A stretch of 63,302 bases of DNA, counting the filler, from Reclinomonas americana ATCC 50394 (Eukaryota): NCBI GenBank assembly GCA_048213135.1. It is 16 parts of 16 records of this genome, joined end to end, with 100 filler letters (N's around TTAATTAATTAA, not from the genome) between each part and the next. Parts side by side here need not be neighbours in the genome. Positions count along the whole stretch, not along the records: positions 28,369 to 30,516 come from AFZH01022831.1; positions 30,617 to 33,410 come from AFZH01022832.1; 14 more parts are not named here. The stretch is one strand, 5' to 3'. Of this stretch, positions 15,901 through 55,186 are shown piece after piece. The position numbers and the translations under genes were made by a program. Under the pieces are notes generated by a model. The model saw nothing but the letters and a program-made list of their open reading frames with translations, did no database searches and was not told the origin of the DNA. Numbering within the stretch: position 1 is the stretch's first letter; the number at the start of each line of letters is the position of its first letter.

Positions 15901-18900
15901 GCCTGTGGTGGGCAGCAGGAGACAGCATTGAGTTGTCGCACGTCATGAAGGAGCTACAACAATGCAACGTACCGGTCCCGGTTGCGTTGTAGTGCCGCCG
16001 CAGGTGACAGGATCCTTGCCGGTCACACACTGGCACTTGTCGCCAAAGTACGGACTGAAGCACACACATGTGCCAGCCGCCTGCACGTATGCATGTGTGA
16101 GGGAAGAGACCTGACACCAGTCGAGAGCACCACCGGAAGTCAACTCACCGTGCACTGTCCGCGGCCATTACACGTCTGCCACGAAGAAACAACGACAACA
16201 AGTCAGTTGCAGATCTACAACTCATCTCTCCGTGTGTGAATAGCTCGTAACTTCCACTGGTCGGCACTGGCAATTGGCACCACCAATGCCGGCAAAGCAC
16301 ACGCACTGGTTGTTGGCGTTACACAGGCCACTGCCATTGCAGGTCTTGTAGAAATCGCACGTGTCGGTCTGGTCGCAGGCGGGGCCCTTCCAGCCCGCAT
16401 TGCACACGCAAGAGCCGTCCTTGGCCGACGCGTTGCAGGTACCATTGGCGCCACACGATGACTTGAGGCACGCGCAGTTGGCACCACCGTACGCGGCGGG
16501 ACATGTGCACGCGCCGGTGCCTGTTGCGCCATCGGAGCACGTGCCTCCATTCATGCACACGCACTTCCCAGAGCAGTCGGCACCGTAGAAGCCTGAGGAG
16601 GGAAGAGGTGAGAGCTTGATTTGAGGTGGAAGGAAGCGAGCGCAGAATCAGACTGACCAGCTTTGCACACGCAGGTGAGGTTGGACTGGCATGTTCCGTT
16701 TCCGGAGCTGCATTATCGCGTGTGTGTGCGCGGCGGTGAGTGGTCGTGACGCGCACGCATTCAGTGAACAAAAAGGAGGCCAAACCAGTTGACAGCGTCC
16801 TCACACTGGCACTTGTCGCCGGCGAAACCCATGGTGCACACGCATGTTCCGCTCGTGGAGCCTGCGCGAGAGATGCCTGTGAGAATTCGCTGGAGAGCAC
16901 TCGCCACACATCGATTTTTGCGCAACAGAATCCGTGATTGCTGCAGCTCGTCGCGGCATTGCACTGGCACTGAGAACCGGCGGCTCCTGTCTTGCACACG
17001 CAGCCGGTGCCGGTCTTGCCCGCAGAGCACGAGGCGGTGTTGGTGGCGACACACGTAGTGCAATCGCCAGCGCACATGGCGCCAAAGTGATCGGCAGCGC
17101 ACTGGTCGCACAACTTGCCGGTGAATCCGGTCTTGCACACACAGCTACCAGCGGTGCCAGACGTGCACTTGGAAGTCCCCTGTGCATCGCAGCTGGTGCA
17201 CAAGTCTGCGCAAGTGGCACCGTAGCGATCGGTCGTGCAGTCGGCACAGAAGGGAGCCGCGAAACCGGCGTCGCACACGCAGGAACCTGTGCACCATCCA
17301 GCGGTTATGACTTGGAGACACACAGATATTAAGCGTGCATGCGCACCAGAGCTGCACGTTCCGTGCCCGCTGCACGTCTGAACCGGATCACAGAACTTGC
17401 TCGAGCACGAGGCACCAGTCCACCCCGGAGTGCACAGGCAAGTGCCATCCGTCTGACAGGTGCCATTGCCACTGCAAGTGGTGGCATTCGAGCACTGGCA
17501 CGAGGCGCCACCGAATCCCGTGTCACTACAGCGAGGATCCGATTTGGTGAGACAGAGTAACTGTGCTGTGTGTTGTGTTCTGCAACTGCTACACATACGC
17601 ACCATGTGCATCCACCGGCGGCGTTGCAAGTGCCGTGTCCATTGCTTTGTGCAAATCACTGGTGAGGAGGATAACATGCGAATTGTGCACAACGGACAAT
17701 CAACAAACTCACCAGGTGGTGGCATTGGAGCACTTGCAGTTGGGACCGCCGAATCCACTGGCGCACGAGCACACAGCCTTGCCAAAGGTGCTTGCGGCCG
17801 TGCACGAGCCGTTGGGAGAGTTGCTGCACAAAGCAGGGAAGGTGAGTGTGGCAATCGAAATCACTGCATGAGACGCACAACCGCCCCGCACCAGTCGACC
17901 GTGTGAGAGCACGAGCAGTCGCTGCCTGCCCACCCGGTGGCGCACGCGCAAGTTCCATCGGTGTTGCAAGTGCCGTGCCCGTTGCATGTGACAAGTGGAT
18001 TGCAGTTGCAGCTGGCGTTCACCCAACCACTGGAACACTGGCAGGTGCCGTCGACGTTGCAAGAGCCGTGACCCGTGCTGAAAAGACGTGAGACGGTGTG
18101 CATGGTGATGGAAGGTTGTCTCTTGCACGCACCAGGTGGTAGCCGCTGAGCAGGCTCCGATTGCCTGCAGTGTAATGTCGGCCAGGAAACTGAGGCCACC
18201 TCGGTCCGTGGCCACCACTGCCAGCGAGTGCACACCGGCCAGCGGTGTGGCATTGACGATCACATTCTTGCCGGAGACGGCGAACGCAGTGCTGAACGTG
18301 TGCGTATCTCCGACATCGGGGTCGACGGCGCTGTACACGAGTTGGGAAAGTGAGCGTGTGTGCGAGAAGGCAGTGCACATTGCTGGCATGTGGACTTTAC
18401 CTCAGCTGGCCAATCACCGTGCCTGCCATATACAGAAAGAAGTAATTACTGTTGAGCACACAGGCTGAAGGCAAGGGTTACAAAGCAGACACTCACCAAG
18501 CGGACTCTGCGGATCAAAGGTGACGTTGCTGATCTGAATGCCAGTGGGTGCCCTGTTGCCGGCTGTGTGCATCACAAACAGTACAGTGTGAGAGAGAGGC
18601 CGACAACACAATATTTTGGTATCACGGCGCTCACCTGTCTGAGTGATGGTAAAGGGCACCGAGACGCTGAGACCGCCAGAGTCGGTGGACTTGACAGTGA
18701 CCGACTGCGTGCCGGTGACACCAGCAATGGCCAGCTGCAGTTTGTTGCCGCTGATCGAGAACACCGAAGCGCCGGTGACCAGTGAGTAGGTGAATGTGTC
18801 GCCGACGTTGGCGTCGACAGTGCTCAGCGTTCCCACAGTGTAGCCGGCGGGAGAGCCCGCTGGGTACGTAAGGCTGCTGAGCGAGATGCTCGTTGGTGCA

Positions 18901-20640
18901 ACGTTGACAACCACTGCAGAGATGGGATGGAGAGTGTGAGAGGAGGGATGATCGGGGACCTGAAAATGAGAGTGACAATACCTTCGTTGATGGTGAACGA
19001 CTTCTGGAATGTGTTGCCGTGGCCGTCGTTGGTCTGAATGGTGATGGCCAGTCCGCTGCCGGTGAGCCCGGCCACATTGGAGCGCAGCTGCGAGCCGCTG
19101 ATGTTGAACTTGGTGGCCGCGGCACCCGACACAATCGTATACGTAAATGTGTCGGTGGCGTCTGGATCGACCGTCGACAGGGCACCGACGACGGCATTCA
19201 GCGCAAGCGGAGGCGTGTACGAGGTGGCCGACAAGATAATGTCGGTGGGCGGTGAGTTGGTCGGTGTGCAGCCGACATTGGTGGTCGGGTTGCAGCCGCA
19301 GGTTGTTCCGGCTGGCGGGGGGTGGAGTGGAGTGAGGGAGGAAAGGAGAGAGAAAGTGGAGAGGCAGAGGGTGACGCAACTGTAGGGCGCATTGCAAATG
19401 CACTTGCCGGTGACCGCGTCACACGAGCCGCGGCCGTTGCATGTCTCTACGGGGCGGCATTCACATTGCGCACCGCCCTGTGACGCACACAGCTCATCAG
19501 TGAGTTTGCGAATGGGTGAGAGATACAATAGTGGTGACGCGTACCAGTCCAGCGTAGCACTTGCACTGACCGCCCACACAGTCGCCATTGTTGTTGCTGC
19601 GCAGACACCACCAAAGGAAGAGATCGTCAGCAAGTTATTAAAAATACGCGCACACACCACGCGAACAGGGGCGCACCAGTCGGCGCGAGTGGTGCAAGCA
19701 CCACGAGTGTGGAACCTCGCGGCACTGAGTGCCGGTGACTGAAGGGTGCTGGCTGCTGCTGCTTTGAGCTGCAGCGGATTCTCGGCCGCCAACAGCGGGC
19801 GACCTGTGGCCAAGTGAAACGGAAGATGTGCTGCGTCGATCCACGGCAAGTCATCGACAGCATACTCGATGGTTCGCGGACCAAAGCCCACGACGTCGAT
19901 ACTGTGTGCCGAGGAATGAGATCAGCGGAACGGCAACAGCACAAAGGCAGAGTGTGTGTCGACGACGAAACTTGTAGCTCTGGCCACGGAGTGCCGAGAA
20001 GCTGCACTCCAGTGCATGTGATCCTGCAGCATTGCTGAGCGGTGAGAGCAGAGACAGACAGACGGACATGTCGACAGGCACAGAGTGTGAAGAAATGCAG
20101 AGAGAAAGAGACCGCAATATGCAGGAGAGGGTTTGCGGATGACGGCATCACTTTCCAGTTATGCTTTCTACGTCTCTGTGACCTACCTCTCTGCCTCTCT
20201 CGGAGAAAAACAAGATAAGACGCGCAACCGACAAAAATGGTAAAAACAATCGACACGAAGTTTCTGCACACGAACTCGTCGCCATGCAGCACGGCCCTCT
20301 CGCATACACACAGAGGCCACAAGGGAGAGAGACGCGAAGTCACCTCATGGTCAGACAGACGGAGAGCAGGGAAAGAAATGCGATCGCCAGCGCTCTTTGG
20401 TTTTCTCTCGCATTCTCACCGTTGACGGGCGTCGCCTGTCGCGAGGAGGCGCACGTGGCTCCATTCACCGCCAGCGCCGTCGACGTGAGCTTGCCGACCT
20501 CGCGGTGAACGGCTCGCACGCGCACATTGACCGCATCTTGGACGTTACGACCCGGAGCCATGACATGCACGCGCAGTTGCGCGTGAAACAGGAAGTTCCG
20601 TCCGCTCAACGCCGCGTCCTCGCACGGCCGCGAGCCCCAA
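12920..20640 (-). CDS. Large modular protein: EGF/laminin-EGF repeats + six cadherin-like repeats + C-terminal clan GH-A (GH2-like TIM barrel) glycoside hydrolase; both ends in gaps
   Basis: Cadherin-like repeats such as NQPPTDITLSS..VIATVTVSDPDVGDTFTLTL at ~19250, 18900, 18560, 15900, 15560 and 15220. More than a dozen CxGxGxCxxxGxCxCxxGWxGxxC units. GH domain GAPYRIYGASG..GGNTVRTY..KYKNHPAVMAWVLGNE (GNE at 13875-13883)..DPNH..DVLGAN..MLTEYGAIGPWE (TEYG at 13423-13434). I traced exon phases continuously from the last cadherin repeat into the GH domain. Confidence 0.85.
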
Positions 20641-21136: not shown

Positions 21137-21832
21137 ATGAGCGATTACCAAGCTGAAGATGTGAGTGTATTATTTCTTTTGCTCTTTTTTGTTTGCTCGT
21201 GTGTGTGCACTTTTGTGTCTGTTGTTGAAGTTGAATGAGGAGCAGTGCATGCTGATCCCGTGCTCTCTCTCTGTCGCAGTTCAACCCCAACTCGTACGCC
21301 CCGGTGAACCTCAATGGTGAGTCACCATGATGATCATGCCTTTTCCTCCTCTTCTTGCTTGTCCTTCTCACTCTCATACTCACGTCCCTCTGTTCCGCAT
21401 GTTGCACAGGCGCCACTGGCGGCATTAGCATTGTGCCGTTTCGTTTAAACCTTGCGATTTTTTCTGAGTGTGAGAACACGCTCGCAATCAGCATTATTCT
21501 CACACGCTTTTTTCTCGCGCTCCTTATTTCCGTTCTCCTGCCACCACACACAGTGCTGAGGTGCGTTGCATGTGTGTATACGTACTGAGTGGAAAAGAGC
21601 AGAGAGGAGAGACAGTTTTAAGTGCTTGTATTTGTCATGCGTCTCATCGGTCCCTTGATTGTGCGAGTAGGGCGAGGTGTTTGTGCACGGCCACAACATC
21701 GACGATCACATTACGCTGACGGGCGATGGCCGGTTGCGTTGATTGCGCTTACTTTGTATTTCGTCGTTTTTTGTGTTCAACTGGTGTGCTGCGCGCAGCG
21801 TCGAGGGCGTGACCATCCACTACAACGTCTAA
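21137..21832 (+). CDS. Small six-exon orphan protein (63 aa)
   Basis: Five consecutive GT-AG introns with pyrimidine tracts join in frame to MSDYQAEDFNPNSYAPVNLNGATGGISIVPAEGEVFVHGHNIDDHITLTGDGRVEGVTIHYNV*. Includes a 7-nt exon at 21554-21560. Confidence 0.65.
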
Positions 21833-23801: not shown

Positions 23802-25356
23802 ATGGTCTTATGCGTTCGTGAGCACACAGTGGTGGACTCGTTGAATCAGGTGCACGTGTCGCTGGATCGCATCGCTGCAGCGGTCAATTCTCGAACACCA
23901 TCGCAGTCATCATCGTTGCCTCCTCCTTCCAGTAGCAGTGGTGATGCGAGTCGACCGCCAGTCGAGTGCCCTGTGTGTCCCACAGTGCCGCCACCGACCA
24001 GCGGCACACAGATTCTGTCGCTGCCTGACACGCAGCAGCGGTTCTTTACGGCATTCCGCAGTTGCGCACTCCATAAGTGACACCGCATGTCGGTTTGTGC
24101 TCATTCATCCGTTGCGTGTCACAGGCAACCGAGACTGGGGCGACTGGGATGGGCAGCGCATCTTGCCGGCGGTGGCGCGCCTCTTCAATCCGCGTGTGGG
24201 TGCGTTCTGTATGGATCTCGGCGCCAATCGAGGACTGCAGGCGCTGCAGATGCTGCAGCTGCTGGCCGAGCTGGATCTGCGGCCACGTGACAAGGGGCAC
24301 CAGAAGAGCCACCAGTTCAAGGTGCCGGTGATCATTGTGGAGCCGATGCCGGGCAATGTGGAGCGCCTGCGCGAGGCTTTGGTGAGAGAGCAGTGGGCCG
24401 ATGCGGGTGCTGTCGTCGTGGCCGGGGCCGCGTGTTGCGTTTCTGAGCACGAGGTTATGTTGTGCCATTTCCGTGTCCTCTTACACCGCGTTGTGATGCG
24501 CAGCGGATCACTCGGGCACAGAGACGTTCTACACCACGGGTTCGTGTGATGTCCGTTTGCCGTGTGTGCGGTCTTGCCATTTATTTCGTGATGCGCAGGC
24601 GATGTGGGCGACTCCAAGGGCACTGTCGGCAAGCGTGGACCGCAAACCGGTGGCACGCAAGTGCAGGTGCAACTGTACACCGTCGACGAGATCATCAAGG
24701 CGAACAATCTGTGGGACAAGCCGTGCTTCATGATGAAGATTGACTGCGAGGGTCAAGACGCTCGGGTTGGTCACACCATCTCTCTCTCCTCTTATATGCC
24801 TCGTTCTCACTGGTCCACACAGATTGTGCGCGGCGCCATGAACTTCCTGAAGCAGCGCACGACGCGCTTCCTGGTCTTCGAGTACAACAGCCTGTGGAGC
24901 CTGTACCCCGAGTCGCCGACGCTGAAAGTCATCACCGACGAGCTGTATAGACTAGTGCGCATGAAGTTGCGCGCGGGGGGCAAGAGGAGGGGGAGAGTGA
25001 ATCGCTGTGCTCTGCATGCTTACCCGCTGGTGAACGCAGGTGCTTCCTCGTCAACGACGGCCTGCTGGTGCCGCTGTACGGCAAGTGGTGGCGGTCCGAG
25101 TACGAATTCAAGTTGCGTCTGCATCCTCTCCTTTTGCCCAGTGATTGCTGTTCTCACTGCTTACTGTGAACGTACCGTAGGGAATGGAGGTCGGTGGTAC
25201 CTGCTCACACACAACGCTCTCTAGATTTGCTCACCCTCGCATCACAGCAACGCATGGTGCATCCGCGACGACGACCCCGACTTCGAGCGGATATACTCGT
25301 TCTGGGCCAGCGACAGAGTCCTCGCCGCGAGCTTCCTGGCACACGACGCCAAATAG
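23802..25356 (+). CDS. FkbM-family (Methyltransf_21) SAM-dependent methyltransferase
   Basis: MDLGANRG, IIVEPMPGN, AASDHSGTETFY, LYTVDEII, MMKIDCEGQD/IVRGAMNFL..FLVFEY, EYEFK-EWS-NAWC; TAG at 25354-25356. Includes a 9-nt exon at 25181-25189. The 5' end may lie in the upstream gap. Confidence 0.88.
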
Positions 25357-29653: not shown

Positions 29654-30480
29654 TTAGAAGGGGAAGTTCTTGACCGGCACAGCCCAGTCGCAGTAGCTGT
29701 ACGATTGAAAATGAGTACTCGTGGTGACGTGAGGGAAAGCAGTATCTGCGGGAAATTAGCAAACCTCTCAATGGCCAAGTTGTTCACACCGCGGACCTGT
29801 GCAGACGGGGAGACAGTGAGTGGAAGAGACCAACTACTTGGAGCTCATAGAAGCATCACACTCACGATGCGGAACCAGCCACGCTCGCTGCGCATTGGCA
29901 AGAAGCAATGAGTAACATGCGAGAGAAACACGTGTGAGCAAAATGCAACAGACTCACCCCCAGTAGGTGCCCCTGGTGACGGAAAAAGAGAGGAAGAGAA
30001 GCGCGTTAGTGGACAGAACTGCAGCGGCAGATTGTAAAGTGCACAGAAACATACCAGCCTGCAGGAGGTGAAAGAAATGCAGGTGAGCAGTGGAACAGCA
30101 GCGATCACACCAACTCAATACTGCACGCAACTGTTGCGGCCAATCCAGTACTTGGTGCCCGACGGGTCCACACCCCAGCCTGCGAGTATCGTCGTGCGTC
30201 AGCACATGATCAAAGTCTGCGCCCTTACGAAAACATCACTCACCGACAATGCTGATAATGTGGTTGACGCTCTGCGCGCCAGTGGTGTCTACGTACAGAG
30301 AAATCAGTGCCAGCAACACTCCGCTGAGCCGATCACAGCAAAACCAAGTCACCCTTGAAGATGCCACCCGTGTAGTTCTCGAACTCGGCAGTCACGTCCA
30401 TGCCGCAGGCAATCGGACCTGCACCGACAACACGTGAACACGGGGAAGGAGAAGGGGGGGAAGAGCAAAGAGGGGAGGGG

Positions 30481-30516
<36 letters not shown>

Positions 30517-32115
30517 NNNNNNNNNNNNNNNNNNNNNNNNNNNNNNNNNNNNNNNNNNNNTTAATTAATTAANNNNNNNNNNNNNNNNNNNNNNNNNNNN
30601 NNNNNNNNNNNNNNNNGCAAAGGGGGAGAGCAAAGGGGGAAGAGCAAAAGCGGAAGAGCAAAGGGGGAAGAGCAAAAGCGGAAGAGCAAAGGGGGGAGAG
30701 CGAGAGAGAACACAACAGGCATACGAACCGCGAGCAAAGATCTCAGCCATCATGTTGGCCTCGCCGTTGATGGTGCCGTGCTCCTTCACGTAGTACTACA
30801 GCCGGTGATGGTTAGTAAAAAGGACTGACTCAGCCAACAGGATGCACCCCGAACTTACCAAAATCTGAGGCTGCGCGCGTCGGAAACGAAGAAAAGAAGT
30901 CAGTCGACAAGAAAATGACTCAGAAACAACAACAGCGGATGCCAACCTTCTGCGCCCAGCACTTCTCCGGCGTGCAGTTCTTGCACACGTTCTCCGGATC
31001 GCACTCCTCGTCCTTGGCTGCGCAGCGAGTGGATCGTGTGAGCGCCAGCGACGAGAACTACAATTTTCAGTCGACACCAACCGAGGTAGGGAGAGCAGGT
31101 CTGCAGGGGTGTAACGGTGAGTGAAAGCAAAGCGCAGAGAGGCCTACTCATAGCGACATACCTCGTCGGGAATGCCGTTCTTCATCACGTAGTCGTAGAC
31201 ACCAGTCGGGCTGCCGCCTGTTAATGTACATGCCGCAAATGAGCAATACACGCAGGAGAGGGTGGAAGAGTCACGTCGACTCACCGCCGCACGTGCCGAT
31301 GGAGCTGGCGCAGTTGAGCAGCACTGCAAACAGACAAACACACAGTTGGAACGTGCACACGAGAAGGAGGCTTCACATTGATCCTATCCACCTTGCGGCT
31401 GCACGGAGTGGGGAATGATGAGTTTCACGAAGGACATGCAACACGACAAACTACATCGACTGACATACCGAGGTGACAACATCGGGCCACTGAGCGCTGC
31501 GCATCTGTGACGGAGGGAGTGGCGAGTCAGTCAATGTGCACGGAAGCAGACATCTCGGTGGCGAGACGAAACGATCTTGATGCGGTCCTGTGACACGCAA
31601 GGGAACGATGAGTACACACGCCGTTGCGAGCGCGAGATGGGGGGAACATGAACGCAACATTGAAAGCCGACAGAGCACCAAATGCCCAGCAGCTTCCTGT
31701 GTGGATGACGGAGAGTCAGCAACATAGCAGGGTCATGATGGAAGCGTTGCGCAGTCGCCGACGCGAACGAACCGCAGTATTGCTGTGCGTGGAGCACGAG
31801 ACAGTGAGTGATCAAGACGATGAACGGCGAGATGCGAGCAGGCAAAACTCACCGGCTGTCAGGCAAAGAAAAAGAAGAAAAGGGAGAGGCAAGCAGGCAG
31901 CGATAAGTTGGCTGCTCAAGCAGAGCACACACGATGAATGCACGACAAAGCAACAAACCACATGCTGGTTGCGGCTCAAAGTCTGTCACATCAAGCACAG
32001 TCGTCAGTGGAACCGAGCACGCAAAGACACAGAGAGGAGACAGGAGCAGCTACGCAACGACGTAGTTGACACCGCTGACATTGCGCCAGTCGAAGCTCGG
32101 CGGGAGGTCGCCAAC
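29654..32115 (-). CDS. CTSZ: Cathepsin Z/X (papain C1A carboxypeptidase) mature domain, about 20 tiny exons
   Basis: Spliced sequence: VGDLPPSFDWRNVSGVNYV-TLSRNQHV-P-QYCG-SCWAFGALSAFN-DRIKI-MRSAQWPDVVTS-PQV-LLNC...GIPDE-TCSPYL...IFAR-GPIACG...[49 protein letters not shown]..*. The RNQHxPQYCGSCWA motif is diagnostic of cathepsin X. The gene spans the 30517 gap; prepro exons were not found. Confidence 0.95.
30617..30700. repeat. Intronic ~14-bp tandem repeat
   Basis: (gcaaagggggaaga / gcaaaagcggaaga)n. Confidence 0.85.
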
Positions 32116-32189
32116 CTGCAAAAAAGGGAAGAGTGAGTGAACAAGGAACAAAGAGAGATGAGGAGAAGTAGAAGAAGAAGAAGGAGAGG

Positions 32190-33315
32190 AGAAGAGCAGC
32201 GCATTCAATGAATGAACAGGTAAATAAGGAGGGGAACAAAGGCAAAGACTGAGGAATGAGGAGAGCAGGCAACAGAACGAGAGGAGAGGCAAAGCGTGGA
32301 GAGAGAAAGGACTGAGGAATGAGAAAAGCAGTGCAATCAATGAACCAGCAGGCAACCAAGGAGAGAACGAGAGAGCGCAGGTCACTGATCAGAGTGAGGA
32401 CTGCGGCAAGAGGAGGGCAGGCACGCCACGAGAGAACGAGAGGAGAGGCAAAGCGATGACAGAGTGCGAGCGGAGGACGAGAACAGCAGTGCATTCACTG
32501 AAGAGCAGGCAAGCAAGGAGAGAATGAGAGAAAGAGCAGGTCATCAGAGTGAGGACTGATGAGGAGAGCACGCAATCCACGAGAGAAGGAGACGAGAGGC
32601 AAAGCGTGGAGAGAGAAAGGACTGAGAATGAGAAGAGCAGTGCCATCAATGAACGAGCAGGAGAACGAAGAGAAAGAGCAGGTCACTGGTCAGAGTGAGG
32701 ACTGAGGAGTGAGGAATTCAAGGCAAAGAACGAGATGAGAGCAGTGTGCTGGAAGGCAGATGAAGTGAGGACTGAGAATGAGGAGAGCAGTGCAATCAAT
32801 GAACGAGCAGGCATCCAAGGAGAGAACAGAGGCAGGGGCAGAGTGAGGACTGAAGAGGAGAAGCGCAGCCAATCCACGAGAGAAGGAGACGAGAGGCAAA
32901 GCGTGGAGAGAGAAAGGACTGAGGAATGAGAACAGCAGTGCATTCAATGAAGAGCAGGCAAACAAGGAGAGAACGAAGAGAAAGAGAAGGTCATCAGAGT
33001 GAGGATTGATGAGGAGAGCACGCAATCCACGAGAGAAGGAGACGAGAGGCACAGACGACATGAGAGCTGTGTGCTGAGAATGAGAAGAGCAGTGCCATCA
33101 ATGAACGAGCAGGCAACCAAGGCGAGAACGAAGAGAAAGAGCAGGTCACTGATCAGAGTGAGGACTGAGGAATGAGGGATTCAAGGCAAAGAACGACATG
33201 AGAGCAGTGTGCTGGAAGGCAGATGAAGTGAGGACTGAGAATATGAGAAGAGCAGTGCAATCAATGAACGAGCAGCCAACCAAGGCGAGAAGAGAAAGAG
33301 CAGGTCACACTGATC
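32190..33315. repeat. Purine-rich modular minisatellite (~100-150 bp shuffled units) upstream of the cathepsin mature-domain exon, probably intronic
   Basis: Recurrent modules aggcaaagcgtggagagagaaaggactgag, agcagtgcaatcaatgaacgagcagg, gagaaagagcaggtcactgatcagagtgaggactg and gcagtgtgctggaaggcagatgaagtgaggactgagaat (two copies). Confidence 0.9.
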
Positions 33316-33510
33316 ACCAATCAGTCCGGAAACACAATGCCAGGGGTCAATGCACACACACAAACACAATCATCACTCCCCTTTCTCTCTCTCCTCCTCC
33401 TACTCTCTCCNNNNNNNNNNNNNNNNNNNNNNNNNNNNNNNNNNNNNNNNNNNNTTAATTAATTAANNNNNNNNNNNNNNNNNNNNNNNNNNNNNNNNNN
33501 NNNNNNNNNN

Positions 33511-36500
33511 CAATGTGTGTGTGTGCCGCTGCTGCCACCTGGCAAAATACGGCGGTGTAGGTGCTGCCAGCGTGTGGCCTCGAGTAGCACCACTCTTGTT
33601 CTCGCCTCCACGTCGACGCTCGGATCGGTATCCACCACCGGAGTCGCTTCCTGCCCGCGGCTGGCTGCAGAATCGGATCCGGCGGCATCTGAATCCACAT
33701 CCATGCTGACGCCGGACACAAGCGTGAGATCGCTCGCGTTGCGTCGATGCGCATGCTGAAGGATGCCATCGACAAAGCCCTCGGGAGTGTGATGCGCATG
33801 TGAAGAGCGCATACGTGTGAGAGGAAGGGTCGCGAGAGCGCGGGCGATGTCCCACTCTGATTCGGCCTCAGATCCAGATCCAGATCCATCTGCTGATGCC
33901 GATGTCGACGCCGACCCCAGCATTCGTACATCCAGATCCCCCTCCTCCTCGTCGTGCTCCTCACTTGCACGATCATCGCCGCCTCCGGATTCGTCAGAAC
34001 GCTGTTGAGGTTGTACTTGTTCGTCGCGATCGGCAAGTGCGTGCACGGCAACATGCTTGCAAACAGAGATGACCTCCGTGATCGCGGCAGCGAGCGCCGT
34101 GTGATACTCCAAATGCACGTTATCAAACGTTTCACGATCGCTCACAGTTGACTGTGCCAAGTCACACGCCACGGAGTACGAGGAGCGCTCGATTTCTGAA
34201 GAGAATTCAGCCCTGCAAGAGAAAAGATCATTAGCAAACCATGTGTCATTCGCAACACATGTACATTGACATTGCACCAACACTCGAGCTCACCTGCGGT
34301 GTGGAGCGATATCATCCGTAGCCCATACAGCAGGCGCTCGTTGAGGCGCAGTCGGCGCTGGTGCTGTATATGCACTTGCGAGTGCGGCGTGAATGGGGCC
34401 TCGCATGACGACGCTCTCCTCGCCAGCTGAGTTCGAACTTGCCGTTGCACATGCACGCATGAGGCCTGCAGCACTTCCGTGCTTGGCACACGCACGAGCA
34501 GCACGCCCCATCGCAAGAAAGGCCGTGACTGCCGATGTAAGCGCTCGTTTCACTGCGACAATCACATCAAGTGTCGACATGTCAGCAGTTACCATGCACA
34601 TGTCGACATCTCTCTCTAGATCTCCACCAGTGCACCTCCATCGCGCACTATGTGTCACCCAATCCCTTCCACTAAACAAGCACGATTTTAGCTGAAAGCT
34701 CGAGCTCATAGTATGCATACTATCGCCCCAGAGAGTGCCGCACCCTCTCTCCTACAGCTATCAAAGTGTGCACCTGTCACTCGTTTCTCAATCTCACTAC
34801 CAGATCTAGCTGATAGGATAGTTGTTACGTGTACGCACATCGTTCCTTTGCCTTCCTGATAGCCACTTCCAGTCTGGTCTCGCCGTCGACTGCTGCTGGA
34901 ACCGACGCCACCGCGACCGGCACCGCGGCACCGTCACCTGCAGCTGAAGAAGCACTCTCACACTCACTCCCGGCTGCGCTGCTGCTGCTGGCCATGCCCA
35001 GTGAGTGTGCTGCATCGCCTTCCAAAACGAAATCTGAGTCTGAGCCGTCGCCATCGCCGTCTCCAGATCCGTCACACTCCATCGCCGAGTCGCCATCGGC
35101 ACCATCGGCTGTGCCCTCGGACCCGACATCGTTGTGCTCTTGATACAAAGCGCTGCACAGCTGTGCCACGACAATGTACGCCAGCTCCTCCGGCGGCGTT
35201 CCCAAAGCCGCCACCGCAACTTGCGCGGAGTAGCAGGTACCAGCAGTAGTGCAAACAGTCAACCTCACGGCCTCGTCTAAGCCATCCGTCACCCTTGTCA
35301 CGGTGTCGCAGATCACCTTCGTACATGTCGATGCACGCGGCGTCGTCGGCTTGCTGCGGGTGCCAGGCGTGTACACCGCGAGGTTTTCGGCAATCTGCTC
35401 ACACAGCAGACCGACTGGGTGTCGCAACGCATGTCGCAATGCAGCAGCGATGCGCAGTTCTTCTCTCTCCTTCGCATACAACATATGCGTGCCGTCGACG
35501 TTGGCGAGTGATTTGCTATCATGATCAGCCGCTGCGTGCAACCGGAAGTCAGCTCGTGATGAACATGTATGAGCAATGCATTTGAGTGGCACCAGCTTGC
35601 ACTTACCCTCGTCCACCTCCTCGTCATCGGCACCATCAAGAGGATCGATTGCCATGTGTTGCAAAAGCTCCATCACCTCCAGTTCCATATCTTCCGTCTT
35701 GTCCGTGCGCTCGCCACCGCGCTTGTTGTCTTCGTCTTCATCGTCGCCACCATCTTCATGATCATCTTCACGCTCCACGTCGAATATTGACTTCTTGTCA
35801 TTGAGCTTCGTCTTGTTCTTGGCAGTGGCAACCTTGGACTCTATTGCAATGGAAGTGGTAGCAATATATAGTGAGTGCCCGTAGTGATCATGACTCACAA
35901 AGACCCACAATATTGCAAATGACGCACTGAAAGAGTCAAATGCGCTTGTCAATAGGTGCGAGGCAGGTTTAAGCCACCGGGCAAGAAGCTGAGTGGATGC
36001 GATCGCCGTGGATGAACTCCGGATCGCTGCGCAGGAACACCACCAAGAATTGTGAGCTACAGATCGCGGATATCGAGTCATGATCACGCTCACGCACAAA
36101 CAACTCACCGCTCAGCAGATACGCCGAGTATGCATACCGCTGTACGCACGTCACAAATGACTCCCGCACTTCCTCCAGAGCGTGCATCACACAATGCACT
36201 GCGTCCTGTACCGCCGGGTCGTCGCGAGCATGCCATGTGGTGAGCAGCTTGTGCGCAACTGTCGCAAATGCATGTTCGCCAGCTGCATAGTCCTCGTTGA
36301 CGATCGCCTCGCAGACAGCAACGTCAAAGGCGTGCAGTTGTCGGTTCTTGACCTGGGCCTCGTCTGCGCAGGCATCATGGAGTGATAATCAGTGAATTCC
36401 TCACCATAACTACGACTTATTCGTGTGCAACGTTAACACTCACCCGACAGCTGCGCCTCGTGTCGAATCCGTGCATCAGTTGCCTCGCGTGTTGGTGGCG

Positions 36501-39056: not shown

Positions 39057-40251
39057 GCTTGAAAAAAACTGGTGTCTGGTGTGGCCGGCTTGTCCGGAAC
39101 TGTCCGCGTGGCACCAGTCGCACGTAGTGTCAGATCGATAATGTCAGCTGCAGACGGGAACGTTTGTGCACGTGCACGTGTCATGCATGCCCACCTGTTC
39201 GGAATGTTATAATTACCATACACTTATAGAAAATTTGTTGATGAGTACTCTATCGATATCGAAGGCGCACGTGGTCTTGCGATCGGCAGAGTGTGGAGTC
39301 GCAATTCAAAATCTTGTCCAGCTGCTGTCTGGTCACCGACACTGTCTTGTCCGGTGTGTTTCTTATAATGTCAGGCCTATTATTGGCCATACACGCCCAG
39401 ATGCGTCCAAGTATGCACGACGTCTGTGAAACTCGGAGGAGTTGGTAAACGTTTCACAACAATTCTCGCTGTCGTGAAATCGTTGGCCGCAGTCGGCTCG
39501 GTACGCGGTCGCACAACGTCGCACTGCAAACCCGCAATTGCGCAACGACTGTCAGTGTCGCGAAATCGTCGACCAAGGTGCCTTCTGTATGCTCAAACAG
39601 TACCACGTTGTACGTAAATCGTTCACTTTTTGCCCCTCGCTGACTCACGTGATGCAGCTGTGCCTTTCGGATCGCTTGCAATGAGACGCTGTGTGGTTGC
39701 TTGATTTTGCTGGCCATGCATATGGTTGCAATTGATCACCACTGCAGCCTTGCAATTGGTGCCAAAGTAGTCCATATATACCAAGAGCCGTGGCATCTCC
39801 CGCGATGTTACCTACTACGCTGCCACCACTGGATGTCGTCTGGCCCATTCTGCACAATCACACACGCAGACACGCTTCACTCCCAGATTGTTGTCAATGA
39901 GGAAAATTCGAGAGTTTGTCTAATACCCGTCATTTCTTTTCGGTGAGTTCTCACGCAGTAAGAGTGCTCGGCGAATTCTGGCGAAATCTGAAGTCCAACA
40001 CGGGTGGACGACCATGGTAGCCTAAACGGGCCAGTCATTCACTGATTTCTGGCGGAGAAAAGGAAGGCGTCCGGCGTTACGGAAATGAAAAATTGACACA
40101 ATCCATCAGTCACGCTCACACATAGGAAATTAAAATTTCTTCTCCCTTGGANNNNNNNNNNNNNNNNNNNNNNNNNNNNNNNNNNNNNNNNNNNNTTAAT
40201 TAATTAANNNNNNNNNNNNNNNNNNNNNNNNNNNNNNNNNNNNNNNNNNNN

Positions 40252-43200
40252 GAGAGAGAGAGAGGGAGAGGAAGGGTGCGCTGAACAAACCCGCGCCACT
40301 TGAGCCTCCAGATCCGTGCAGCGCTGTTGCAGTTGCTCGTGCAGCACCGGGTCAATCTGTCGGTACTTGGCCACAAACTGCTTGTGACGGTCGGCCCATC
40401 TCTCGGCGTCCTGTCGCAACAGCGTCTTCTCGTTCTCCAACAACTCCACCGTCTGCTGCAGTTCCAGGACCTTGACTGTATTGCCGGTGTCAGTGACGGA
40501 CAACAGAAAAAAACGTGAACGGGAAGAACAACGAAACGTCGCAGTGGCTGCAACTCCTCGTCGAGCTGCTGGGCGCGCTGCTGCCACGAGTTGGCGTTGC
40601 GCAGATTTCTCTCATTGTCGGTGCGCAGTGTGATGTTGCTCTCGCGAAGCAGATTGAATTGCTCCAGCTTCTGCTGCATGGCGCGGAACTCGTTCTCGTC
40701 CATCGGCAGCTGATCTCGCCGGTGCATGGCCTCATGCAGCTGGTTCTCCAGCTGCTGGCAGCGCCGCTTCAATCCCTCATTTTCGCCGCTCAGTCGGCGA
40801 CTCTCCAGCTGCAGCGTGTCGGCACGCTGCTCAGCCAGCTCCTTTTCACGGCGCACGTATCGCAGCTGTGATGAGGAGACACATGTAAGTCAACGAGTAC
40901 TATTATGCGCAGTGACATCTCTCTTCTCTCACTCGCACCAGCTCCATGGCGTCTTCCGCCGGCTCAGCTGCCGCGGCAGCCGCGTCGTCAGAGCCGTCGG
41001 CATCGCCACGAGCGCGACGAGCGAGTTGCACACTGAGACCGCCAAGCTGCGTGTGAAGCAGGTCGTTCTGTTTCTTCAGCTCCTCCAGACTGCAATGAGG
41101 GAAAAGAGAAATGAGTGAAGAGGCAATGAGGAAGAGAGTTATCAGAACAGACAACACACCGCACGGACGACATGCTAATGGCCTCCTCCAAGGTCGCCTT
41201 TTGCGTGTCTGCCGAGTGACGTGCTTCGGCCAGCTTGGCCTCCAGCGCGGCGACTTTGGCCTGCAGCTCACATTATTAACGGACATGCGACTCCTGCAAG
41301 AGAGACAAACACGGAGAAACGCACCTCGGCCTCCGAGCACTCGGCGGTCTTGTCACGCAGTCGATTGCGCAAGTGTTGAATGTGATGCACCGTGTCGGCG
41401 TGCTTGGCCAACTCGTTCTGGTAGTCCTCCTCGGCCTTGCGGTAGCGTGCGAAATCGCGATTCTTGTCGGCTGCGCACAGCGGTGCAAGACTCAGACGCC
41501 GTAACCACGTCATCGTCACAATCAGTCAGCGCACACACACCTTGGCACGATTCAGCACGCTGCAGAGCGTCGGCTGTCGAGCGTCGCAAGCTCTCGCATT
41601 CGTCTTCCAGCTCACGTCGTGCGCGCTCCAGCGAGTTCAAGTCGGCACGCAGTTTCTGTTGTTCACCAGCACACATAACACATCAGCTTCACGTGTTACA
41701 AATTCTCCAAAGAGGCAGCAGCAAACCTCCTCCAATTTCAGCGCCTCCATCTCGCGTTCACGAGCACCCTCTTGCACCGACTGCAGCCGACCCGACTCCT
41801 CCTCGACACGCGTGCGCAGGTGAGCGAGCTTCGCCTCGGCGTCGGCTCGGTACGCCGTAAACGCCTCCGACGTCTCCTCCAGCGCCTTCTCGTGCACGCG
41901 GGTCAGTTCCATGTACTGCCGGCTGTGTTCGCGCTCCTTGGCCAGCTGCTCCTGCAACGACGTGATCTCGTCACGGGCATTGGCCAGATCCAGCTCCAGC
42001 GCCGAATTCGGCGCCTGCGGATCGGCCGCCGACGCACCGAGCAGCACCGCAAGGCGATTCTCCGCGGTATGCAAATGCTGCGCCAGCGTCTCGTTACGCG
42101 AGCGCAACGCGTCTGCCGTGATACGAGTCTCCTCCAGCTCGCGTCGCAACGCCGAGCTCTCGCCCTCCCGACTCTTGTTCTTCTCGGCAAACTCGCGCTC
42201 CGCCACCTCCAGACGCAGCTGCAGGTCGCGCGAAATCAATCGCTCCTCTTCCAAGCGCGATTTCAGCCCCGTCCTGTGCAGAGACAATGCCGCATTCAGC
42301 GCACGTGTCAACTCGGTACACACATATGAACACATGCACATACCAATCCCGCTGCAGCACGCCAACTTCGTCCTCCAGGCGCTTGCGCTGGTCGTCGCTC
42401 GACTGTGCCAGCTGCTGCTGATGCGACTGCAGCTTGTCCAGCAGCTGCTCCATACGGCCGTGCTCCTTCATCAGGTCGCTGTTCTCGCGCATCAGGCGCT
42501 CGTACTGCTGCGACATGAACGTCTTCTCCGAGTTGGCACTCTCCAGCTTGACCTCCAAGCGACGAATGGTGGACTCCTTGTCGAGGAGCGCACGGTTGGC
42601 ATCCTCCACTTGCGTCTGGTACGAGACCACCGACGCGTTGAACGACCGGTGCATCTCGCGCAGTTGTTGAATCTGTGCGCATACAGTGAGCACGGTGCAT
42701 CGCGAGTACAGGCGGGCGCGTCGTCTCCCTTCTCACCTCGGCACGATCCTCCTCCAACGACGCAACCAGCGTGCGCTGGCGCTGCTCGAGGTACTCGATC
42801 TGGGCACGGGCACGGCCCAATTCGCGCTGCGCGCTGTCTTTGGCCTGCGCAACCCACCGAAAACCCCCACCAGTCAGTGAGAAGCGAGAGATGATGTCAG
42901 ATGACCGAAGAGAGCGGACCTCGCGCTCCTTGTCCTGCGCCTCCTGCAGCAGCTTGCGAGTCGCCGAAAAGTCGACCTGCAAGCCCTCCAACACTTCGCG
43001 GAATTTCACTGCGGCGAAGCCAGTCAGCAGGACTAGCACAACCAAAAAATCATTGTCTGTTTGCTCGACGCAACTCTCTGGGATGTCGTCCTGGACACGG
43101 TTGCTGGCCGGCGCGCCCTCATTGCTGCGATTCTGCTCCAGATTCTGCGCCAGCGCCTTGTACATGTCACGCTGTCGCACAATGGCCTCCACCATCTTCT

Positions 43201-45778
43201 CCTGACGCTCGCGCTCGACTCGCATGAGCTCCACCTCGGCACTGGCGGCCGCCAGCTTGTCGTCGAGCTCGCGCTGCCACTGCCGTTGCTTGGCGGCGTT
43301 GGCGCGCTCGACACCCACGGTGATTTGACGAATGTGGCGAACCAGCTGCACACACACANNNNNNNNNNNNNNNNNNNNNNNNNNNNNNNNNNNNNNNNNN
43401 NNTTAATTAATTAANNNNNNNNNNNNNNNNNNNNNNNNNNNNNNNNNNNNNNNNNNNNACACACACCACACGAGGTCAGGCTACTGACAAATCAAATGCG
43501 ACGCCACCTACCAGCACCACAACGCAACGAGGTTGTTCTTCTCTTGCAGATCGGCCACATCGCGGTATGTCAGCAAGTCAGTGCTGATTGGCTGCTGTTC
43601 CGTCAACAGAATCTCCACGTCATCGTCGCCACCGTCGCCTTGTCGATTGCGGCCTTGCAGGAAACTGAAAGCGCCACCAGAGCCAGCAGTGCCACCCACG
43701 GCCGAAACGCCTGCCGACTGACGCAGCAGCTCCTGCAACTGGCGATTCAAGTCGTTGCGCTCGACCTGCAGCAGCTCCATGCGTCGCTCGCAGTCCTCCA
43801 CGTAGACACGCGCCTGGTCGACCTCAGACTTGTAGGATTCGGCCTGTCGCAGCGCCTGCGAGATCTTGACTTGCATCTGATTGTGTGCCACCACCAGCTG
43901 CTCGTACTCGCGCCGCTGCGCCTCGATGATCGGCGACTTCTCCTCAATGTCGCTGAGGATTTGCTGCAGGTAGTTTTGCAGACGGCGGTTCTCGTCGGTG
44001 CGCTTCTGCAACTCCGCCTCGGCCTCCACCAACTTGGTGTACATTTCCGTGATCGACATGCCCTTGCTCATCGCACTGCGACGGAATGGGTGAGTAAAGA
44101 AAAAAGCACATTCGCCCTGGTGTACATGACCAACCTGACGGCACGGGCGGTCGGCGACAAGAATGTGGTGGCCGGCGACACGCCAATCGATGCAGCCGCC
44201 GAGCGTGTGAGAACTGGCGTGGATGGCGAGGCGAGCGGTGCCGAAGTCGGCATGTGTGACTGCACCGACATCATCTCGCGCTCCAAATCCAACAGCTGCT
44301 TGCGCAGCTGCACGACTTCGTGCTGCGTGGCATCGCGGACCTCGGTCACCTCCTGCAGCTGCGACTTGAGATTTTCAATCTCCTGCTGCGAATCCGCAGT
44401 CGCCGTGTGCAGCTGGCGTCGGAGGGCGTCGACTTGTCCAGAGAGTGCAGCCGTGCGTGCCTTTTCCTCGTCCAAATGTTCCTGCCACATCGCCGGCGAT
44501 GAGATGACATTTAGAGGAATAGGCGAGAGTGTGCCACGGCAAACCTGGCACATCTTGGAGAGCTTCGACAGCGACGCATTCTCCGCCTGCAACGCCTCCT
44601 CGCGCGAAAGCGACGAGTCGCGCAACTCGCGTAACCGCTCGGCGAGCTGGCGTGCATTGGCCTCGGTATCCTGCAAGCGCGTGCGAGTGCTCGACAGCTC
44701 CACATCCAGCTGCTTCTCGCTCTCGCGCGCTGCACGCAGACGCGACTCCAAATCGTGCACCACCGAGCTCTTCTCGTTGCGGAACTGCGTAAACTCCTCG
44801 TTGCGACGCTGCAGCTCCTGCTCCAGCCACTCATTCTGCCGTGCCAAGTTGTCCCTCTCCTGCTGCAGCTTGGCATTCTCAAAGTGCAGCGGCGCCTGCC
44901 CGCCGCGCACCTGGTTCAACTCATCCACCAACGCGCTCTTCTCCTTGTACAGCTGCGCCAGCCGATTGGAGATGCCGGCCATCTCGTCGGTGACCGACGA
45001 GGCGGCCGACTCGCGCGATTTCAGACGCTCCTCCACCTCCGCCTTGGAGTGCACCACCAGCGAGAGATCCTCACGCAGCTTGCCATTCTCCGCACGCAGC
45101 TGATTGGCCGCCGCCAGCTGCTCGCTCAGTTGCCGCTGCAGATCGCTCAGCTGGCCCTCTGCAACAAGCAATGAGCGCGAGGCGACAAAGAGGAGAGAGA
45201 GACAGCATGGAAGACGCACCCAGCGCGGCTGTGCGCGTGCTCAGCTCCTGATGCGTCCTCTGCAGCTGCTCACGCTCCCGCTCATTGCTCTTGTAGCGTC
45301 TCTCCAGCTCCAAGAAGCGATGATCGGCCTCGAGTGCACGTGCCCGCGACTGCGCAATCTCATGCTCCACTCGCTGCAAGCAAGCACAAGTCAATCTCCC
45401 GCTCTCTTGCACACACACACACACACGCAGAGACATAACCTCGCGTGCGACTTTGAGCTGCTTCTCCGCCACCTCCACAATGCCACTGATGTCGCCGGCG
45501 GCACACAGTCGCCGATACTCGTCTGCAGCATCGCTGAAAAACGATGGCACACCTGTCACACACAAAGTCAGACACACGCACACACACACACACGCACACA
45601 CTGCCAATGCACGCGCAACTCTGATGATGCACAGCCGCAGACACTGCAAACACCTGTGTTGCACGCGTGACATGTCAGCAAACACACTTGCACTTTCATC
45701 TCACTCTCTGTTCTCTCTTTGTATCTCGCTCACCGAGGTGCCAGTGCCACTGCCTTGGCCACCAAACTCGGCGTCCAT
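40252..45778 (-). CDS. TPR: Nucleoprotein TPR / Mlp1 / NUA nuclear-basket coiled-coil protein, N-terminal part
   Basis: GMSITEMYTKLVEAEAEL..ENRRLQNYLQQILSDIEEKSPIIEAQRREYE, ISTDLLTYRDVADLQEKN, MVEAIVRQRDMYKAL, YQNELAKHA, YVRREKELAE, NLLRESNITLR. Spans the 43359 gap and is truncated at the 40152-40251 gap. Probable ATG at 45778. Confidence 0.93.
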
Positions 45779-46093: not shown

Positions 46094-47607
46094 ATGGATT
46101 TGAGCGGAAACCCGAATCAAGATCGGGAAGTGTTGCCGCGCGTGGATGATGGTGTTGCCTCGTTGGCCTGGAGGTGAGTGTGTGAGTGTGAGAGAGTGTG
46201 TGAGAGAGAGAAGGCGATGAGCGTGGTGAGAGGACACTATAAAGTCGACAAGATCGACCTTGTCGAACTCAGACTCACACGGGCGCTGTTTGCTCACCTG
46301 TTGCTTGCAGTCCGGCCGGCAACTTCATCTGTGCGGGTGTGTGGTCCAACAAGGTGAGCGATTCATTCTTTCATTCACTTGTCTCTTGCATTCCTCCTCC
46401 TCCTCCTCCTCGTCTTCTTTTCCTTCTTCTTCTTCTTCTTGTTGTTGTTCTTCTTCTTTTTCTTGTTCTCCTCCTCCTCTTTCTCTTCCTTCTCTTCCTT
46501 GTCCTTCTTCTTCTTCTTCTTCTTCTTCTTCTTCTTCTTCTTCTTCTTCTTCTTCTTCCTCTCTCTCCTTCTCTCTCATTGCCTCTCTCGCTTGTTCAGG
46601 TGAATCTGTGGGAGATTGCCATGGACGGCTCATCGGCGCCGAAGGACGAGTTGCTGCATGAGGGACCGGTGCTGGCCACATGCTGGTCATCGGTTCGTGC
46701 ATTTCCTCCCGTGGTTCGAGGCAAGGCACTCTCTGTTTGCTCATTGTCATCAATCATTGTTAGGATGGCTCCACGATCTTCAGTGCCGGTGGTGATCGCT
46801 CGGTCAAGATGTGGAATCTCGACACGGGGCAGTCGAGCACCGTGGGCATGCACGATGCGCCGGTCAAGTCGCTGATCTTCAGCCCGGACCTGAATGTTGC
46901 GCGACACTTTCATGGTGTTCGTGCCCGCTCAATTACCTCACCCTCTTGTGCAGTTGCTGGTGTCGGGATCATGGGACAAGACGGTCAAGTTTTGGGATTG
47001 CAGACAGCAGCAGCCGGCGGCCGCGTTGCCGTTGCCGGAGCGATGCTATGCCATGGATGCGGCGGGTGCGCTGATGGTGGTGGCGTGTGCGGCCAAGAGG
47101 ATTATGGTGTACAACCTGGGCGACATTAGCAAGCCGTTCCGTGAGCTGGACTCGCCGATGAAGTACCAGACGCGCTGCGTGTCTTGCTTCCCCACGGCCG
47201 AGGGCTGGGCACTCGGCTCGGTGGAGGGCCGTGTGGCCATTCAGCATGCGGCCGAGGAGCACGACAAGCAGAACTTCACCTTCAAGTGCCACCGCGAGAA
47301 GAACGACATTTACGCCGTCAACGACATCTCCTTCCACCCGTCGTGCGGCTCCTTCTCCACCGTCGGCTCCGATGGCTCCTTCCACTTTTGGGACAAGGAC
47401 AACCGCGCCAAGCTCAAGTCCTTCAAGCGCTGTGATCAGCCCATCTCTGTCGGCAAGTTCAACCGCGACGGCACCATCTTTGCCTATGCCGTGTCGTACG
47501 ACTGGAGCCGTGGTGCGGCGGCGTACAAGCCCGAAAAGGGCAATCACATTCTGTTGCATGCCGTGCAGGAGAACGAGGTCAAGCAGAGGCCACCGGAGCG
47601 CCGGTAA
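46094..47607 (+). CDS. RAE1: mRNA export factor RAE1/Gle2 (WD40)
   Basis: Five exons: NPNQDREV..DDGVASLAWS/P..; HEGPVL; HDAPVK; LVSGSWDKTVKFWD; LPERCYAMD; SPMKYQTRCV; GSVEGRVAI; FTFKCHR; IYAVNDISFHP; GSDG; FAYAVSYDWSRG. The SPxKYQTR and YDWSxG blocks favour Rae1 over Bub3. Confidence 0.95.
46393..46580. repeat. (CTT)n/(CCT)n microsatellite in RAE1 intron 2
   Basis: Long cttcttctt run between the donor at ~46353 and the acceptor at 46599. Confidence 0.95.
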
Positions 47608-54960: not shown

Positions 54961-55186
54961 CAGAGACGCAACGTCGCACAGTCGTCATGAAGCGCATTCG
55001 CACGGCCNNNNNNNNNNNNNNNNNNNNNNNNNNNNNNNNNNNNNNNNNNNNTTAATTAATTAANNNNNNNNNNNNNNNNNNNNNNNNNNNNNNNNNNNNN
55101 NNNNNNNGGGCGCGCGAGGGGGCGTGTGTATTGAGTGGTGAGAGGAGCGATTCTGATGTTTTCTCCGTTGTGTTATGGCTGCACAG

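Follow-up and report, generated by a model that had tools for sequence, protein, structure and literature searches.

How finely can a protein-coding gene be divided by introns and still be read as a complete, conserved protein? The question is raised by a window of 63,302 nucleotides (nt) from the genome of Reclinomonas americana ATCC 50394 (GenBank assembly GCA_048213135.1; 'the window' hereafter denotes this whole stretch of DNA). On its minus strand, positions 32115 to 29654 quite probably belong to a functional nuclear gene of an intron-rich protist. The predicted enzyme is a cathepsin X/Z-type carboxypeptidase, and the portion coding for its mature form is split by 21 spliceosomal introns. 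According to an earlier note on this DNA, the papain motifs of the encoded enzyme can be recovered only if several exceptionally small exons (microexons) are spliced in. The analysis described here supports this reading of the conserved cathepsin motifs for exons of 3, 4, 7, 10 and 15 nt and adds a probable seventh microexon, a 12-nt exon at 30870–30859.

Gene architecture

The gene, read from the sequence and checked by script, consists of 22 exons and 21 GT..YAG introns (all of its features lie on the minus strand). Joined by their coordinates, the exons form 729 nt that stay open until the TAA codon at 29656–29654, i.e. 242 residues plus the stop. In gene order, the exon lengths are 57, 24, 3, 10, 38, 15, 36, 7, 39, 56, 19, 71, 12, 67, 66, 45, 48, 4, 15, 22, 32 and 43 nt (33 nt on average), and the intron density is about 29 per kilobase (kb) of coding sequence. 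None of the 42 splice dinucleotides departs from the canonical pattern: the donors are GT in each of the 21 introns, and the acceptors are 19 CAG and two TAG. The 20 gap-free introns range from 61 to 103 nt with a median of about 69 nt, close to the 'about 70–100 nt' of the earlier note but reaching below it at the lower end; those that flank the seven microexons are 63–103 nt long and are complete on both sides.

The seven exons of at most 15 nt measure, in gene order, 3, 10, 15, 7, 12, 4 and 15 nt. Exon 3 (31853–31855), the triplet CCG between CAG and GTGAGT, would encode the Pro of HVPQY, and exon 4 (31773–31782), the 10-nt CAATACTGCG, would provide Q-Y-C and the first base of the following G, just before the catalytic Cys. 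The 15-nt exon 6 (31573–31587) is read as DRIKI, on the evidence of residue conservation and shuffled sequences, and the 7-nt exon 8 (31392–31398), CCGCAAG, as P, an invariant Q and the first base of V. Near the end of the gene, the 4-nt exon 18 (30055–30058), GCTG between CAG and GTATGT, would complete the Ser and start the Trp of NSW, and the 15-nt exon 19 (29958–29972; GTYWG) would supply the end of this W, then GTYW and the start of G. The coordinates given for these six exons in the earlier note are all right, each exon being preceded by CAG and followed by GT. The probable 12-nt exon 13 (30859–30870; PQIL), located between CAG and GTAAGT, was not part of that note.

Family identity

The assignment of the gene to the cathepsin X/Z type of the papain family (C1A) peptidases, already made in the earlier note, is well supported by the predicted product. 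The best BLASTP match of the joined product, homologue P0029, is 59.9% identical over 247 columns (E 1.6e-107), and the product scores 370.3 bits against a hidden Markov model of 120 cathepsin X homologues, all of which contain PF00112; the alignment with cathepsin X/Z homologues runs end to end and is gap-free at the microexon positions. The 120 homologues, 14 of which are named cathepsin X at source and five cathepsin Z, were obtained from one of two tandem cathepsin X proteins, which in turn had been drawn from a library of 1.84 billion proteins by a 40-residue open reading frame (ORF) piece containing exon 1. Each of these two library proteins, P0008 and P0009 (681 and 601 residues), contains two complete tandem cathepsin X-like domains; in the first domain of P0009, the Gly-Ser before the catalytic Cys is replaced (Y-C-D-A-C-W as opposed to Y-C-G-S-C-W).

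The separate pieces of the gene carry a fainter signal of the same family. Three of 45 ORF pieces match PF00112 (Peptidase_C1) colinearly, each below the Pfam cut-off (E 0.038–0.2), namely those with exon 5 (profile positions 24–43, with a match also to CGSCWAFGA of cathepsin B), exon 15 (positions 130–158) and exon 17 (positions 171–189). In the Protein Data Bank (PDB), the best match of exon 1 is procathepsin X, 1DEU, at residues 30–51 (E 0.0012), and exon 17 (GWG) matches residues 184–202 of cathepsin X, 1EF7, where W comes right after RNS. A PDB search with the VLLNC exon piece yielded no match, and a 50-residue ORF piece (P0002) had none at E≤10 among longer proteins.

In papain-type enzymes, the catalytic roles belong to the Cys of GSCW, the His of NH..S.VG and the Asn of NSW. 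All three are kept in the predicted product: C34 is matched in 118 of the 120 homologues and N204 in 119, and the His lies in VNHIISIVG, which aligns with INHIISVVG of the profile. Also present is the H-I/V-P insertion before Q-Y-C-G-S-C-W, the 'mini-loop' of cathepsin X (H26 is found in 118 of 120 homologues, the column of V27 holds I in 106 and V in 11, and P28 is found in all 120); the Pro of this insertion is the residue encoded by the 3-nt exon. Human cathepsin X/Z (1DEU, 1EF7) has a mature chain of 242 residues, equal in length to the joined product, and the same H-x-P-Q-Y-C-G-S-C-W and NSWG motifs, although about half of the residues differ; the two genes are also built differently, the human one consisting of few exons.

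Conservation and spliced alignment

The residues that the microexons would contribute are, for the most part, nearly invariant in the family. Among the 120 homologues, the Pro of the 3-nt exon is present in all 120; Q, Y and C of the 10-nt exon in 92, 118 and 120; D, R, I, K and I of the first 15-nt exon in 120, 118, 103, 5 (93 have N at this place) and 118; P and Q of the 7-nt exon in 65 and 120; S and W of the 4-nt exon in 118 and 119; and G, T, Y, W and G of the second 15-nt exon in 118, 79, 52, 111 and 119, respectively. The 12-nt exon fills four columns that are gap-free in all 120 homologues, although the residues themselves are not conserved.

Six of these exons can be found without prior knowledge of the gene model. 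A purpose-written protein-to-genome aligner, which accepts GT..AG introns in all three phases and sets no lower limit on exon length, was run with each homologue as a single reference at intron penalties of 10 and 20. The exact exon was recovered by 120 and 0 of the 120 references, respectively, for the 3-nt exon, 120 and 116 for the 10-nt exon, 109 and 93 for DRIKI, 73 and 49 for the 7-nt exon, 20 and 0 for the 12-nt exon, 119 and 107 for the 4-nt exon, and 119 and 106 for GTYWG. At a penalty of 30, the alignment collapses because the cost of an intron then outweighs what even the ordinary, but short, exons of this gene contribute. When driven by a profile of the 120 homologues, built without the gene model, the aligner recovered, untold, all six microexons of the earlier note at penalties of 10 and 15; at 20 and 25, only the 3-nt exon dropped out of these six. 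As long as splice signals were left aside, the 12-nt exon was never chosen at penalties of 10–25. The profile alignment did not change when the minimum intron length was set to 30, 40 or 55 nt or when GC donors were added. Once the aligner was made aware of splice signals, by a model of the donor context, the base at −3 and the branch-like motif that had been trained on 17 introns not touching the 3-, 7-, 12- and 4-nt exons, it picked all seven microexons at penalties of 20 and 25. Forbidding a microexon costs the family score 11.1 bits for the 3-nt exon, 22.3 for the 10-nt exon, 24.6 for DRIKI, 11.3 for the 7-nt exon, 14.5 for the 4-nt exon and 28.6 for GTYWG, i.e. 11.1–28.6 bits for the six that the earlier note considered necessary, and 8.0 bits for the 12-nt exon.

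A related claim, that some of these exons are obligatory since skipping them shifts the frame, holds for plain skipping but does not cover alternative GT donors, which restore the frame at the 4-nt and 7-nt sites. If the 4-nt exon is forbidden, a GT donor at 30121 keeps the frame, yielding RNSCVQG without the invariant W; if the 7-nt exon is forbidden, the frame can be kept by a donor located 4 nt further on, at the expense of the invariant Q. These alternatives lose 11–15 bits against the family model.

Chance controls and splice signals

Can such small exons arise by chance between the larger ones? In an exact-restoration test, each inter-exon stretch was dinucleotide-shuffled 5000 times, and a success required that the expected residues be restored with both introns of at least 40 nt. 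This occurred in 84 of the 5000 shuffles for the 3-nt exon, none for the 10-nt exon, three for the 7-nt exon and four for the 4-nt exon, and an open 12-nt AG..GT piece appeared in 873 of 5000. In a second, lax test, in which an equal profile score suffices, the stretch between the anchor exons was dinucleotide-shuffled 100 times for each microexon. Without splice signals, no shuffle reached the real score for the 10-nt exon and both 15-nt exons, and all 100 did so for the 12-nt exon, for which plain homology gives no support; with splice signals, none of the 100 shuffles reached the real score for six of the seven microexons. A local shuffle test with four single references is uninformative for the 7-nt exon, where the real score was reached by 1, 45, 12 and 2 of 60 shuffles, and for the 12-nt exon (30, 17, 60 and 60 of 60), since nothing obliges a local alignment to span the gap. 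The 10-nt exon and both 15-nt exons are far beyond chance, and the case for the 3-, 4- and 7-nt exons is built on exact restoration, which at most 1.7% of the shuffles achieved, together with the splice signals.

These signals are of several kinds. A CTNAY motif with its A 15–33 nt from the 3' end of the intron is present in 18 of the 21 introns, including six of the seven that end at a microexon, against a background of 23% of the 73 non-acceptor AGs in the region that have CTNAY 15–35 nt upstream; intron 14 has no such motif. The donors are weakly conserved, and about half of them begin with GTT (GTTGCG three times), those after the 3-nt, 12-nt, 4-nt and second 15-nt exons being of the strong GTGAGT/GTAAGT/GTATGT kind. 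An origin of the introns from introner-type repeats was considered and rejected: three of 190 intron pairs are more similar than the 99th percentile of shuffled ones, about the number expected by chance. The introns are not copies of one another, and hence do not represent a recent burst of a repeat-derived intron family.

Weighing the gene model

Several observations weigh against the proposed gene structure. The gene model is read from the DNA sequence, from which we infer the splicing pattern, the order of intron removal and the expression of the gene. The peptide of exon 15 occurs in no protein of a 5.8-billion-protein collection, which thus yields neither cDNA nor an annotation in favour of the model, and an exon of the window's gene for a Rae1/Gle2-type mRNA export factor (46109–47595, plus strand) has best matches that are only 51–60% identical (plants, fungi, algae and amoebae), which implies that the protein collection contains neither the proteome of this organism nor a close relative. 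The signal peptide exon was not found upstream of exon 1, leaving the 5' end of the gene incomplete. Intron 2, before the 3-nt exon, has its CTNAY motif 48 nt from the end, followed by a long pyrimidine run, and intron 8, after the 7-nt exon, has none. The advantage of the signal-aware alignment over the single-intron solution is only +4 units for the 3-nt exon and +1 unit for the 12-nt exon. Without signals, the score test is weak for the smallest exons, with 19, 12 and 7 of 100 shuffles reaching the real score for the 3-, 4- and 7-nt exons, respectively, an indication that the aligner, left free, will frequently close gaps of one to three residues through chance pieces. With signals, 8 of 100 shuffles still did so for the 4-nt exon, and 6 of 150 with another seed; none of these last six used a new microexon upon inspection. 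Finally, Rae1 introns of 137 and 246 nt imply that length cannot exclude an unsplit intron of 145–176 nt in the cathepsin gene.

The comparison of intron positions, proposed as a check in the earlier note, also went against the model. The only related genomic locus found, a metagenome contig of 1461 nt (L001), contains the 3' half of a cathepsin X-like gene (positions 1–760), which shows 54% identity over 124 residues and has exons of 40–93 nt, six introns of 54–63 nt and GTA-type donors. Its NSWGT is contiguous, and none of the six introns coincides with an intron position of the window gene. The microexons thus are lineage-specific as far as visible, and conservation lends them no support. 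In its own right, the contig shows that densely packed short introns have also been acquired independently by another gene of the cathepsin X family.

In view of the behaviour of the smallest exons in the score test, one could suppose that only the 10-nt and the two 15-nt microexons are real and that each of the 3-, 4-, 7- and 12-nt sites is one longer intron, with another GT donor. Frame-keeping versions of this kind are available (an exon 30179–30122 at the 4-nt site and 31504–31465 at the 7-nt site), omitting the 3-nt or the 12-nt exon leaves the frame intact, solutions of equal score occur in 7–19% of the shuffles, and introns of 137–246 nt do exist in this genome, in Rae1. The resulting enzyme, however, would lack Pro, Trp or Gln at invariant places or would contain small insertions, each alternative forfeiting a residue of 119–120 of the 120 homologues and 8–15 bits. 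Moreover, exactly restoring microexons with AG and GT are found at all four places, with a chance probability of at most 1.7% for three of them, and the branch-like motif is found at six of seven microexon acceptors as opposed to the 23% background. This possibility is considered unlikely.

A different objection concerns the 4-nt exon only. The first bases of intron 17, GTTG (30128–30131), nearly repeat the GCTG of this exon, and as a consequence two splicing patterns yield the same protein: exon 17 might extend by 4 nt to 30128 and be joined to exon 19 by a single 155-nt CG..AG intron, giving the same N-S-W-G with AGT in place of AGC as the Ser codon. When CG and odd donors are allowed, the profile aligner prefers this exon (30179–30128) with a score of 722 versus 707, which counts against the 4-nt exon. 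Nevertheless, CG..AG introns are extremely rare, and GT starts the other 20 introns of the cathepsin gene, the four introns of Rae1 and the five introns of the small ORF described below. The stretch in question also holds a full internal acceptor, CTCAC-N-CAG, and a GTATGT donor, and the exact AG-GYTG-GT arrangement is what emerged in only 4 of the 5000 shuffles. Such a CG..AG intron therefore seems highly unlikely. The near-repeat itself could be a trace of how intron 17 arose or slid.

There is, finally, the scenario of a locus that is dead or silent, with tiny exons left over that are no longer spliced and a working paralogue elsewhere. Knowledge of the locus from genomic DNA would fit such a scenario, as would the missing signal-peptide end with its repeat-rich, gap-interrupted upstream region. 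A decaying copy, however, is expected to lose some conserved residues or splice sites, whereas in this gene 242 codons are open over 22 pieces with no non-canonical splice dinucleotide, nothing is missing among the catalytic Cys, His and Asn and the invariant residues, and the product reaches 370 bits against the family model. A dead or silent state of this locus thus appears very improbable, and a working, finely split gene is the preferred reading.

The remaining exons and the upstream region

The modelled part of the gene opens with exon 1 (32059–32115), which is preceded by AG and followed by GT and would encode the start of the mature enzyme, DLPPSFDWRNV. Exon 2 (31959–31982; TLSRNQHV) was recovered by all 120 single references at a penalty of 10 and by the profile aligner. 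Exon 5 (31659–31696), GSCWAFGALSAFN, contains the catalytic Cys, exon 16 (30244–30288) contains the catalytic His, and exon 17 (30132–30179) comprises GWGVDPSGTKYWIGRN plus the first base of Ser; the remaining exon with a Pfam match, exon 15, is located at 30353–30418. Both the script-joined model and the profile aligner include exons 7 (31469–31504), 9 (31285–31323), 10 (31162–31217), 11 (31082–31100), 12 (30947–31017), 14 (30729–30795), 20 (29866–29887) and 21 (29765–29796), and exon 22 (29654–29696), which includes the TAA stop, comes from the script-joined model.

Intron 14, which follows exon 14, spans the assembly gap at 30517–30616. The window, with a G+C content of about 55%, has 15 such gaps at positions from 12820 to 61536, each composed of 44 N, TTAATTAATTAA and another 44 N; because the cathepsin gene runs across one of them, the gaps appear to lie within a scaffold rather than to join unrelated contigs. 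Upstream of exon 1, the minus strand of 32116–33410 starts with a C+T-rich stretch of more than 280 nt in which units are repeated, followed by low-complexity ORFs; no recognisable signal-peptide or propeptide exons were detected in this interval. Farther upstream, past the scaffold gap at 33411–33510 and some 1.4 kb of repeat sequence, a weak candidate for a propeptide exon (C-Y, R-P-H) is located at 33551–33618 on the minus strand, but it appears only at intron penalties of 8–12 and is gone at 16.

Other genes in the window

Dense splitting is real in some genes of the window and absent from others. The exons of the Rae1 gene measure 65, 43, 93, 132 and at least 642 nt; its introns (137, 246, 71 and 58 nt) start with GT without exception and are confined to the 5' third; no microexon was found in this gene, the only other one modelled against homologues, all of its exons being at least 43 nt long. 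By contrast, a small ORF of 63 codons (21137–21832, plus strand) is composed of six exons of 24, 37, 28, 7, 62 and 34 nt (mean 32 nt), separated by GT..YAG introns of 119, 93, 116, 110 and 66 nt, i.e. about 26 introns per kb of coding sequence. Its 7-nt piece (21554–21560, plus strand), one of two further microexons listed in the earlier note, is flanked by AG and GT, and the frame of the ORF needs it. The other one, a 9-nt piece (25181–25189, plus strand) between two exons of the C-terminal part of its gene, likewise lies between AG and GT, yet the frame does not depend on it: its inclusion adds K-E-W-S in place of N and its omission keeps the frame, which makes it optional on sequence grounds.

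Long open exons coexist with the finely split genes. By eye, those at 15000–19900 (minus strand), 55157–56396 (plus strand) and 40200–45240 (minus strand) resemble cadherin-/EGF-like repeats, mitochondrial aconitase and a long coiled-coil protein. Rfam and tRNA scans of the window gave no matches.

A possible mechanism of splicing

Splice sites can be paired across exons (exon definition) or across introns (intron definition), an established contrast. In the cathepsin gene, each intron of about 60–100 nt is self-sufficient, with its own donor, a CTNAY branch-like motif and a YAG acceptor, and the spliceosome would pair the sites across each of them. Exons of 3–15 nt, on the other hand, would not be recognisable as units. 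Given the short introns, each with its own signals, we infer intron definition and consecutive removal: with introns only 3–15 nt apart, the splice sites abut, and adjacent introns are most likely removed one after the other and not together. After the removal of the first intron, the microexon would form part of an adjoining exon, so that the second intron would now border on an exon of ordinary kind.

Comparison with known microexons

From plants, fungi and animals, the literature already describes ultra-short coding exons and how they are misannotated. In land plants, coding microexons of 1–15 nt have been described that are needed for conserved motifs and are mostly absent from annotations (Yu et al. 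2022, PMC8831610). As far as that description goes, they resemble the exons reported here in being constitutive, coding and flanked by GT..AG introns, with conserved motifs depending on them, in the occurrence of adjacent pairs (e.g. 5 nt and 12 nt in a rice gene) and in the likely consecutive removal of the flanking introns. They differ in being isolated, ancient, conserved across land plants and backed by RNA-seq, often with long flanking introns, whereas the cathepsin gene has seven microexons in one coding stretch of 729 nt, separated by introns of 61–103 nt and known from DNA. Exons of a single nucleotide have been described in APC11 of Arabidopsis (PMC4674806) and CYP621A of Fusarium (PMC12940212); by these accounts, plant and fungal spliceosomes handle exons below 3 nt that annotation misses, the cases being single per gene and proven by cDNA, unlike the exons of at least 3 nt, many per gene, that are read from DNA here. 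The constitutive 4-nt microexon of human MPC1 (PMC9929638) is likewise always included and not a multiple of three in length, but it is reported in the setting of vertebrate exon definition and depends on strong exon-defining regions, as opposed to the short introns of the present gene.

What sets the cathepsin gene apart is the density: seven exons of at most 15 nt in one gene are unusual. For intron-rich lineages, 6–7 introns per kb of coding sequence are given (PMC3174169), compared with about 29 in the cathepsin gene and about 26 in the small ORF. Literature searches on microexons and intron density brought up no gene with this many ultra-short exons, which is no proof that none is in print.

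Implications

If the gene model is right, the active-site motifs of the enzyme are assembled from fragments that may measure only 3 or 4 bases. With ordinary gene finders and read mappers, the protein would then come out broken or truncated, and the proteome of this protist would be under- or miscalled wherever genes look like the cathepsin gene; that gene predictors misannotate the genome 'systematically', as the earlier note had it, is a fair guess. A stronger proposition, that the intron density of this organism exceeds that of every genome region described, with a spliceosome that has no practical lower exon limit and removes abutting introns strictly in sequence, is doubtful, albeit conceivable. 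If spliced as modelled, the gene would be a compact test case for how two spliceosomes handle introns that almost touch and for how several times the published intron density of intron-rich lineages could originate in one gene when Rae1 has only four introns. If many genes are alike, this lineage would be a natural system for the study of pure intron definition and of rapid, position-independent intron gain.

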